From Folioceros fuciformis (Eukaryota), in NCBI GenBank assembly GCA_049999805.1, contig JBNGIO010006079.1, forward strand, positions 34,281 to 70,446: DNA of 36,166 nt. The letters are read 5' to 3'. The notes beneath the pieces were generated by a model. The model was given only the letters and a program-made list of their open reading frames with translations. It was not told the origin of the DNA and ran no database searches. The translations under genes were made by a program, and so were the position numbers. Positions 9,695 to 12,600 of the stretch are shown here, piece by piece. Position 1 is the first letter of the stretch. Every line of letters begins with the position of its first letter.

Positions 9695-12600
9695 CTACAC
9701 AACGTGGGAAACCGGAACGATCATCTCCAAGCCGAGTTGCAAGGCGCTCTCGGACTTGTCAAAATGAGGGTCATGTGGGAAGAGACGTCTTTGCTCCGCA
9801 CTGGGCTTGGCCAGCCAGGACCAGTATACCCAGGCTGCTACCATCACTGCTGTGGTGGACAGAGCTGCCAGGCTCCCGAAATGGGCCACGTCGTTTGCGA
9901 CAATGGCAACTCCCAGCATCACCAGCTCTGCCAAGCTTGCTAAAGACACCTCCGTCGTGCCGATGAGATTGGCCTCTGACACAGGGATGGCCGTCTGGAA
10001 GATCTGGGCATCCACCATGTCGTAGGCCCACTGACCAAGCCTAGACATAACCTGGATGGTCATGGTAGAGGACATGGCGTAGCTTGTCAGTTTTTTGAGA
10101 TGAAGTCGTGAAGGAAGACAGAGGTTGGAGATGGGACTGGACTCACTATGAGGAAGAGGAACACGAAGAGTGATCCTTTGTGGCCGAATGGGTTGAACAA
10201 ATATACACCAACAGCCATGGCCAGCAGTGAGGCCTGGAAGGAGAGGGCGGCAGCTCCAGACTGCAAGATGTTCAACAGGGTGACATCAGTTTTCGAGAGC
10301 TGGCCATGACGGTTGATGAAGGAGTAGAAGGTTGATCAGGTGCCTACCCGTAAGACGCCGAGCTTGGAAATGAGATTGGCAGACACGAATGTGGCTGCGA
10401 ATCCCATGAGGGCGCAGAGCCCCCTGAACGCGCCCACGACTGAAGGACTCAAGCCTGCCCAGGAGAACAATGGCAAGTCAGCAGAGGGATAGAAGAGATG
10501 CCACTGCTACGGTAGGTTGATGCAAGCCAGACGCTCACCTCGTTGAGTGAGGAACGTTGTCATTAGACCTCCGGGTGCCAGGACGGCGTTGAAGTAGAGA
10601 AGCACGTATGCCAGACTGGCTGGCAGGACAGGCTGTGCTAGGTATTTCTTCCACCCCAGGATGACGGAGTTGGAAGGGGAAGGTGTTCCTGTGAAGGAGA
10701 CAAGGCGGGCCGGAGATGTCAAGGTGACTGGAGGTCAGGAGCAATGGATGGTTCCTAGTGGAAAGAGGAACGAACCTTGCACTTCCTCAGGACTCCAGCT
10801 AGATGTCTGCCCAGGGCTAGCACCACGCTGGGGAACATGTCTTGGTCTGTTCAATGCTCCACTTGACACTCTGTCCGTCCGCAAAACCAGGGCGACCTGT
10901 AGAATACCGCGTCACATGGCTGGGGATCAAAACATTGGAACACTTTCCGAGCTCAGGTGCAACAGAAAGAAGGTTAAGCATCGCAGTGGGGAACTCACCA
11001 ACAGGGGAAGAGAGATGACCATGGCGCCAACCGCGACATACAAGCAGGTTACAGGTTTGAAAGCTGACAGCAGCATCCCAAAAGCGAAAGGACCAGCTAT
11101 CTGAGACAATGAGGAGCACATGGATGTTAGAGTCCTCACAAGGCTGGTAACAGCGACAATGGGTGCAAGTGGCCAAGATCTCCTGTTACCTCACAAATCA
11201 GATCCACTCGCCGAAGTATTGCATTGGCATTGGCCAATGCAATGGGTCGGTTTGCCCCTGCCAACTGCATAGCATGACGCACTCAGTCCAGACGTTCGAA
11301 TACGGCTGTTGAAATGTACACGGGTCGAGATGACCCGTGCGTGACCTTTGTCCTTACCAGCACAACCCAGTCCCTTTCAAATGCTACTCCTGTCGCCAAT
11401 CCAGTAAGCCTCTCAACACTTCCGGCCAGGACGAGAACAATGAACCATGGCTGGAATACAAGCGCAGACGCAGTAGATGCAACCGCAACTCCTTTCTTCA
11501 GCGCATGAATGGTCACACCTGCCGACAAAACCATGGCTGCTGTCTGCAACAAAGTTTCCGGGGACAATTTCAGAAGACCTCCCAGTGACTGGATCTGTTT
11601 GACGGCGGCAGGCACAGAAGCCTCACCTGAATGGCACTCAGGGCGTTGAAGGACATCACTCGTGGCATGGAATCCATCAACGCACCCACATATGGCCCCG
11701 CTGCAAATATCACGAGCTGCCAAAGCACAGACAACGCGTTAGAAACAGGCATCCCAAGTTGGCACGGTCATGAAACTCCAACCACCCACTGCCATCAGTG
11801 TCTTGAGGTGCAGACTTCGGGGAGTGAATAAGATATGGGCAGCGACAGGGTTCTGAAAGCGGCGGGTAGTCGGCTCGGGCAGGTGTAGAGGACGCACTCA
11901 GCACACACCAGTACTGGAGAAGACCTACCTGACTCGTAAAGCTGACCACTGCCACCGGGAGGAGGCTATGGTGCAGGAGGGCCACCAGCGCAGGCCAGGC
12001 AAAGTGCCAAGTTTGCTCCACAAAGCACGATGCAAGGTAGCTTCCATACATAGCTGAAGGAGGCACGGAGACGATGTGAGAGAATGGAGGTTACCTGGCC
12101 CACAAAGCTGACAACGGCCACAGGCAGGAGGCTATCGTGGAGAACCGCAAGCACCACAGGCCAAGCAAACCGCCATACTCGTTCCATAAAGCATGACACC
12201 ACATAGGTGACATACATGGCTGAAAGCCACGGCAATCCACGCCAGCAAAACATTCTTATTCAGCTGAAAGTGGCCCGCGCAGATATCCACATGGCGACGT
12301 CGAATCATCCCACTCCCAACAACAAGACTGAAAGGAAGGAAATTCGTGTGCTGAAGCATTCGCATTTCCATCAACCACTCTGCCATGCCATCGTACCGTT
12401 GAGTCCATCAGGGTGTGCCGGCGTGGCAGCAAGCGCCTTCTGCTCCTCCAGAGACAGCACCTGCCACAGACAGCAGACGGCACTCAAGCCACCATCACCC
12501 ACCTCGAACCCCCCGCCCCAAACCTCGCATCAGCCCGAAAATCCCAACAAAACCCACACCTGCACATCCAGAAGCGGCTCCGCGGTGCCCTCGAAAACCT

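Follow-up and report, generated by a model that had tools for sequence, protein, structure and literature searches.

Does a land plant choose by splicing between two versions of the first membrane helix of a metal transporter? This question is raised by a ferroportin gene on the minus strand of a stretch of 36,166 nucleotides from Folioceros fuciformis (GenBank assembly GCA_049999805.1, contig JBNGIO010006079.1, positions 34,281 to 70,446; the whole stretch is called the window below). An earlier reading of the letters alone, here the sequence-only reading, had proposed that two neighbouring exons of this gene, A and B, are mutually exclusive duplicates which swap metal-site residues in transmembrane helix 1 (TM1). 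The best full explanation of our results, and a probable one, is an organellar FPN3-type ferroportin with two homologous mutually exclusive TM1 exons, and the structural and evolutionary part of it is very likely correct. That the A and B forms also differ in metal or substrate handling, as their residues suggest, is possible but short of probable.

Exons A and B are a true tandem duplicate of one coding exon and not a chance resemblance. They are identical at 89 of 125 nucleotides (71%) and at 26 of 41 amino acids (63%), and their nucleotide differences fall at codon positions 1, 2 and 3 in the numbers 9, 8 and 18. Each 41-residue translation on its own exceeds the gathering cut-off of the Pfam family FPN1 (PF06963, 24.6 bits), with 32.1 bits for A and 26.8 bits for B, and both match the same stretch of the profile, positions 7-46. 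As first described, the two exons have the same length and the same acceptor context (...ttcag), lie 41 nt apart and share their phases, 1 in and 0 out; our reading of the minus strand agrees, and both translations are open in the frame of the upstream exon. This exon ends in ...AAC G, and its last base forms an alanine codon with the CC that begins A or the CT that begins B (G|CC, G|CT). The donors are GTAACC after A and GTAGGT after B. Of the neighbouring borders, the upstream donor at 12397 had been placed correctly, but the downstream exon starts at 11716 (joint 11716->11929) and not at 11718. A and B thus are adjacent, equal in length, phase and splice-site type, and homologous, the features that the available text of the Kassiopeia paper (PMC3923563) gives as general criteria for homologous mutually exclusive exons. 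No third, decayed copy of the exon was found among the stop-to-stop frames of positions 7500-13500, a survey that included no dedicated similarity search of the flanking introns.

The use of both exons can be followed in the contigs of four runs (X1, X2, X3 and X13) that we aligned to positions 9400-12920. Those of X1 show no mismatch to the window, X2 is from a relative, and X3 and X13 are from further relatives. Because every intron is skipped at GT..AG borders, the contigs derive from spliced RNA. In X1 the main contig (1374 nt, depth 65) covers the 3' exons, and A and B each have a contig of 181 nt. The B contig (depth 42.8) carries the exon at its positions 30-154 with the listed joints 12053->12397 and 11716->11929, and the A contig (depth 16.1, no mismatch) holds exactly 12095-12219 at its positions 28-152. 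Its flanks of 27 and 29 nt lie elsewhere on the window, since all five X1 contigs are wholly on it. X2 likewise has two contigs of 181 nt, at depth 37.8 for B and 23.2 for A, of which the latter covers 12095-12220; of the exon B joints only 11716->11929 is listed there. An identical loose end of 28 nt stands behind 12054 and behind 12220, and by manual count it matches the upstream exon of the window at 24 of 28 positions. As the loose ends are identical, A and B both follow the same upstream exon in this relative. Both exon B joints are also found in the contigs of X3 and X13.

An assembler that meets two alternative middles puts out two arms of the same length that share their ends. The depths of the two arms add up to 58.9 against 65 for the main contig in X1 and to 61.0 against 59.1 in X2, sums that are rough only, contig depth being a poor measure of quantity. 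In mature RNA, one exon or the other stands singly between the same two neighbours, as these contigs of X1 and X2 and the isoforms of three named species show. The proposed mutually exclusive use of A and B is in this way supported from four sides: the RNA contigs, the analysis of the reading frame, the equal-length isoforms of the three species, and spliced Sphagnum-like contigs.

The reading frame offers an explanation of how exclusivity might be kept. Transcripts with A only or B only are open to the natural stop. Since 125 is not a multiple of three, transcripts with both exons, with neither exon or with the spacer retained between them run into an early stop, which in the partial frame comes at 165, 153 and 164 codons, respectively, the last of these inside B. 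This confirms the expectation that inclusion of both exons breaks the frame, and the same incompatibility exists in every species with the pair, both exons being 125 nt throughout. We infer that such mRNAs would be removed by nonsense-mediated decay. Frame and decay together would then act as the general safeguard of exclusivity, to which steric hindrance would add in the window lineage, where the short spacer would put the donor of A too near the branch site and pyrimidine tract of B for joint use. The minimum plant intron is about 70 nt. The introns of the gene measure, in order, 99, 177, 41 (the spacer), 212, 83, 93, 89, 102, 87, 84, 87 and 95 nt, so that the spacer is half of the smallest of the other 11 introns (83-212 nt). 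An incompatibility between U2 and U12 spliceosomes was ruled out as a cause of exclusivity: all sites are GT-AG with ordinary donors (GTACGA, GTAACC and GTAGGT), none of which resembles the U12 donor consensus.

The pair is not a peculiarity of this locus, and A and B isoforms are already present in public gene models. Among the relatives we find them in Ceratodon purpureus (A in P0008 and P0074, B in P0075 and P0076; 615 and 618 aa, two assemblies), Physcomitrium patens (A in P0085, isoform X2, and B in P0010, isoform X1; 617 aa) and Selaginella moellendorffii (A in P0016 and P0114, B in P0113 and P0118; 574 aa). In Sphagnum, A is found in S. magellanicum (P0012) and B in S. jensenii (P0110), with proteins of 631 and 642 aa, and a moss-like transcript pair has A in P0006 and B in P0071 (616 aa). 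Of the Sphagnum-like metagenome contigs, four span the region, and in each of them A and B, both of 125 nt and bordered by AG|...|GT, are separated by a spacer and agree with the window in order, length and phases; the spacer is 95 nt in L003, L004 and L005 and 87 nt in L007. A Sphagnum-like RNA contig (L002) joins the upstream exon directly to B, and in P0131, a protein called on a Sphagnum-like contig, A is joined directly to the next exon.

The pair is orthologous across these species. A tree of 27 exon translations sets the six A exons apart by a branch supported at 93/88 and present in 100% of 200 bootstrap trees, which is all that an alignment of 41 columns resolves. The closest match of window A is the A exon of Ceratodon (80%), and that of window B is the B exon of Sphagnum (78%), compared with 63% between A and B of the window itself. 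As the A exons of all species group against the B exons, the duplication predates the split of the window lineage, mosses and Selaginella. The pair would accordingly go back to a tandem duplication of the TM1 exon before these lineages separated, and each mRNA would carry either A or B. The two resulting transporters would have the same length and be alike outside TM1 and the beginning of TM2. Ferns, gymnosperms and angiosperms have a single, B-like TM1 form, E-(Q/H)-x-W-N-F-AWP, and two zygnematophyte algae have E-H-x-W-R-F, also B-like; in these groups the single form is that of annotated proteins, in which unannotated second exons are possible. In a fern-like genomic contig (L008) we found no second TM1 copy even at an E-value of 50. 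A profile of the six A exons gave 11 matches and added no named liverwort, hornwort or fern. A homologue search with exon B alone found one match among 35 candidates, which reflects low sensitivity and not rarity.

Several gene models around the pair are unusual. P0116, isoform X1 of Selaginella moellendorffii (634 aa), has both exons in frame with 60 extra residues, so that a spacer of 55 nt is read through; it is probably an unproductive or mis-modelled transcript, as TM1 twice would give an odd number of extra helices. P0007 and P0079 (Ceratodon, 528 aa), P0126 and P0129 start inside A in another frame or read through A, spacer and B, and by their residue counts imply moss spacers of roughly 70-76 nt. 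In these cases automatic annotation mishandles the pair. Physcomitrium patens has three loci, and among the members listed the A form occurs at one only (P0085, P0093) and the other two have B only; the A exon of these two paralogues may be lost or unannotated. A more distant, probably algal transcript (P0132, 595 aa) has E-K-I-W-R-F in TM1, which is neither the A nor the B signature. The A and B exons of the window are closer to each other (dN 0.21) than those of the Sphagnum-like contig L005 (positions 9355-9697; dN 0.46), and window A shares FAWP with the B exons, at a place occupied by FALP or FGLP in the A exons of mosses. The likeness could reflect partial gene conversion in this lineage, or an older state that was retained.

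A duplicated exon might also be a product of the assembly, or one of its copies might be dying. A falsely duplicated exon has next to no probability here: an N gap (12927-13326) is only 700 nt away, but the copies differ at 36 of 125 bases, each has its own mismatch-free RNA contig, and the same tandem pair is present in four independent metagenome contigs of another lineage. It is also very improbable that a working protein comes from one exon alone and that the other is splicing noise or a decaying pseudo-exon. In X3 and X13 the main mRNA contig has B, with A present only together with adjoining intron, and only a B-like exon is known from ferns and seed plants, both of which would fit a decaying A. 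Against this, A and B are open, of equal length and intact at their AG/GT borders in the window as in the Sphagnum-like contigs, the A exons form a conserved class of their own across the window lineage, mosses and Selaginella, and spliced A forms are found in X1, X2 and a Sphagnum-like contig. The check that had been proposed, conservation and dN/dS of both exons in relatives, points the same way. Both exons are kept, and a comparison of window and Sphagnum gives a dN/dS of about 0.27/0.84 in A and 0.12/1.17 in B. Both ratios, which rest on 41 codons with dS near saturation, are well below 1. Of 126 bases compared per exon in the close relative X2, none is changed in A and 6 are changed in B, against 8-24 in other exons of the same contigs, so that among close relatives A is the least changed exon. 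Both copies evolve under constraint. An explanation of a different kind accepts the exclusive splicing and attributes it to competing RNA structures, a docking site and its selectors, in place of spacer length and frame. The Sphagnum spacer of 87-95 nt is spliceable and may need a further mechanism of this kind. However, positions 11700-12470 hold only five inverted repeats of 9-11 nt, none of which pairs the spacer with a flanking intron, and by our estimate chance alone would yield about one perfect 9-mer pair in a sequence of 771 nt, so that the observed repeats are at chance level in the window, the sequence to which this comparison applies. We consider this explanation improbable.

What the exchange of the two exons might change can be seen from the structures of human ferroportin. 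We aligned a profile of 16 full-length relatives to the human chains 8dl6, 8bzy and 6w4s; it matches them with an E-value of 1.9e-44, and also matches the bacterial homologue 5aym. A phmmer search of the Protein Data Bank with each 41-residue exon alone found no ferroportin. In the profile alignment the alternative exon corresponds to about residues 28-69 of the human protein, its invariant glutamate to D39, the next residue to R40 and exon position 16 to H43. The proposed mapping of the exon onto D39 and H43 therefore holds in the alignment to the solved human ferroportin. According to the available text of PMC12594662, D39 and H43 form the metal site S1 of the human protein, and the FPN3 preprint (10.1101/2020.07.15.203646), as far as its text was available, reports a glutamate at the position of human Asp39 in FPN3.

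Six A and eight B exons have disjoint residue sets at exon positions 3, 4, 6, 11, 13, 14, 28 and 40. Position 11 is Met in A and Val or Leu in B, position 13, which adjoins the glutamate, is Arg in A (6/6) and His or Gln in B (8/8), and position 14 is Val or Ile in A and Thr or Ala in B. At position 16, the H43 position, all six A exons have Arg; of the eight B exons, four have His (window, Sphagnum, Selaginella and the moss-like transcript pair) and four have Arg (Ceratodon and the three Physcomitrium loci). The contrast drawn in the sequence-only reading, E-x-x-W-H in B and E-R-x-W-R in A, is therefore true of the window but not constant across species. The constant signature of the two exons is above all Arg in A versus His or Gln in B beside the glutamate.

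The choice between A (M-E-R-V-W-R) and B (V-E-(H/Q)-T-W-(H/R)) would change the residues around the conserved glutamate aligned with D39, in the metal site S1 of the N-lobe. Metal affinity, selectivity or proton coupling would then set the isoforms apart, and B would be nearer to an ancestral, His-bearing metal-binding form. In its most specific version, the pair would be a splice-operated substrate-site switch of an organellar iron exporter. Its invention would date from the origin of land plants or earlier, and ferns and seed plants would have lost it. Metal export would fall to the B form, in which His or Gln adjoins the glutamate and the H43 position is mostly His, the A form (E-R-V-W-R), with Arg on both sides of the glutamate, would have another substrate or coupling, and the ratio of A to B would be set by iron status or tissue. 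Taken with all these parts, we regard this version as unlikely, and it is put forward tentatively. If true, few conserved pairs of mutually exclusive exons known in plants would be as old, and nature would have provided an experiment on site S1 of ferroportin. A somewhat doubtful alternative is that splicing is exclusive and conserved and the isoforms are alike in substrate and metal binding. They would differ in some other property such as stability, gating kinetics, contacts with lipids or partners or membrane insertion in different organelles, or the pair would serve dosage control at the level of splicing. The glutamate aligned with D39 is identical in both forms, many lipid-facing positions differ too, Ceratodon and Physcomitrium have Arg at the H43 position in both forms, and one exon suffices in euphyllophytes, all of which this alternative would explain. 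It accounts less well for the finding that three of the eight fixed differences adjoin the glutamate (positions 11, 13 and 14), and that the charge change of Arg versus His or Gln is kept in 6/6 A and 8/8 B exons.

Several observations weigh against mutually exclusive TM1 exons that switch a metal site, and they concern the splicing, its mechanism and its function in turn. All four runs are labelled 'RNA?' as a guess, so that their origin from RNA rests on the splicing itself, and the two exon A joints of X1 (12219->12397 and 11716->12095) are not listed and were deduced by elimination. In X3 and X13 exon A occurs only in contigs that run into intron (12025-12333 and 12095-12253). These contigs are of low depth and could represent precursor RNA before splicing, or else a minor A form in these organisms; since contigs drop minor variants, a missing spliced A contig in these two runs carries no weight, and neither do stretches that no contig covers. 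For a related reason contigs are unable to show the absence of transcripts with both exons. As to the mechanism, the steric element was deduced from the spacer length. Relatives have longer spacers, 55 nt in Selaginella, as calculated from the 60 residues that P0116 has in excess, and 87-95 nt in the Sphagnum-like contigs; the X3 contig that crosses the spacer lists no indel, and so the spacer is 41 nt there as well. The idea that a 41-nt spacer is a steric signature consequently fits the window lineage and does not extend to the relatives with 55-95 nt. Steric hindrance cannot be the conserved mechanism, which leaves frame incompatibility as the conserved safeguard. As to function, the switch at the H43 position is absent in Ceratodon and Physcomitrium, with Arg in both forms, and the substrate of the clade is debated. 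The available text of the FPN3 preprint cited above argues for iron export, and that of a review (PMC4780311) for uptake of aminoglycosides or nicotianamine by the same clade.

In animals, homologous mutually exclusive exons occur commonly and have been studied in depth; examples are exons 2 and 3 of alpha-tropomyosin, which exclude each other by steric hindrance, and exons 3A and 3B of SLC25A3, the mitochondrial phosphate carrier. Like these tandem-duplicated pairs, the window exons are adjacent, of equal length, homologous and alike in phases and splice-site types, with one per mRNA. They resemble the SLC25A3 type of case in that the swapped part is a membrane helix of a carrier, and tropomyosin in that the donor of A is very near the acceptor of B. 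They differ from the animal pairs in belonging to a land-plant gene in which, with spacers of 41-95 nt, exclusivity in most species probably comes from frame and decay. That such exons are rarely described in plants, as the sequence-only reading had remarked, is also stated in the available text of the Kassiopeia paper (PMC3923563), which reports 99 candidate internal exons in Arabidopsis that, according to the same text, are not described elsewhere. The window pair is a plant case with the same predictive features as these candidates; unlike them, it has both its forms represented in RNA contigs and is shared by bryophytes and a lycophyte.

The closest functional comparison is Arabidopsis FPN3/IREG3/MAR1 (At5g26820), which is in the same clade as the window gene and has a glutamate at the human Asp39 position. 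Unlike the window gene, the seed-plant and fern proteins in our set have a single TM1 form, E-Q/H-x-W-N, and no alternative TM1 exon was found among them. Human ferroportin (SLC40A1) belongs to the same fold family, and its D39 aligns with the window glutamate, but identity is low and the H43 position holds Arg, His or Asn depending on exon and lineage. By our reading of the alignment, the positions of the second human site (C326 and H507) are not kept in the plant clade.

We found no published description of alternative TM1 exons in a plant ferroportin, in a search that left supplements and subscription journals outside, and the available text of the FPN3 preprint (10.1101/2020.07.15.203646) has no mention of isoforms, splicing, Physcomitrium or moss. 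A splicing device that is well known elsewhere thus has an old plant example, apparently undescribed so far, which is backed by RNA and extends from bryophytes to a lycophyte. The exon pair encodes the helix with the substrate site of an organellar metal transporter, of which both the substrate and the direction are debated. Physcomitrium patens, a model moss that can be transformed, has the isoforms among its gene models (XP_024365668 and XP_024365669), so that the question of TM1 and site S1 is directly testable. The pair further suggests that frame incompatibility alone, with spacers of 41-95 nt, can keep two exons exclusive over very long times.

The host gene is an IREG3/FPN3/MAR1-type (SLC40A3) ferroportin, for which an organellar location is predicted from the clade. 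A search with the last exon returned 64 longer proteins, the nearest from Ceratodon and Physcomitrium (77-78%), then Sphagnum (71%), followed by Selaginella, conifers, ferns and flowering plants. All matches with an SLC40 label are called "solute carrier family 40 member 3, chloroplastic" or "member 2, chloroplastic-like", which places the gene in the IREG3/FPN3/MAR1 clade by its named matches, the tree being one without IREG1/2 sequences. The TM1 motif FAWP...SLLPVAV is common to the window protein and its SLC40 member 3 relatives. In a tree of the constitutive part of the protein, the window falls outside the moss clade (99/97) and outside ferns and seed plants (100/100), without its exact place being settled. 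Of eight exon-bearing translations scanned with Pfam, six pass the FPN1 cut-off (26.8, 32.1, 64.8, 43.8, 53.4 and 33.0 bits), one lies below it (12.4 bits) and one has no FPN1 match; besides A and B, five exon-bearing frames at 9.7-11.8 kb match the family, four of them above the cut-off. The coordinates of the gene are collected in Table 1.

Table 1. Features of the ferroportin gene in the window. Exons and joints are taken from spliced contigs, and the exon cut positions are uncertain by up to a few bases.
Feature	Positions	Strand	Length	Remarks
Exon A	12095..12219	-	125 nt	first of the alternative pair; TM1 to start of TM2
Exon B	11929..12053	-	125 nt	second of the alternative pair
Spacer between exons A and B	12054..12094	-	41 nt	GT..AG; 30/41 bases pyrimidine (73%)
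Intron upstream of exon A	12220..12396	-	177 nt	
Intron downstream of exon B	11717..11928	-	212 nt	
Constitutive upstream exon	12397..12457	-		its donor serves A and B; joints 12053->12397, 12457->12557
Constitutive downstream exon	11627..11716	-		its acceptor is used after A or B; joints 11716->11929, 11543->11627
IREG3/FPN3-type ferroportin gene, part covered by RNA contigs	9626..12734	-		12 exon positions; stop codon 9695-9697
Exons, 5' part	12734-12557, 12457-12397, A or B, 11716-11627, 11543-11358, 11264-11190	-		spliced contigs
Exons, 3' part	11100-10997, 10894-10775, 10687-10538, 10453-10348, 10260-10145, 10049-9626	-		spliced contigs

The assembly gap at 12927-13326 consists of 400 N and falls either within the first coding exon of the gene or shortly before it on the upstream side. 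Because the 5' end enters this gap, the start codon and any transit peptide are unreadable. The GC content of the window is about 50%. Together with the short introns of the gene, this value would tentatively suit a hornwort, Anthoceros angustus having 49.6% GC (PMC7027989). A neighbouring gene on the same strand lies at about 7900-8880 and 9400-9517. Pfam gave no match for three exon-sized frames of this gene and so did not confirm the apparent resemblance of its N-terminus to that of a clathrin-adaptor medium subunit. High-depth RNA contigs cover its part at 9400-9517.

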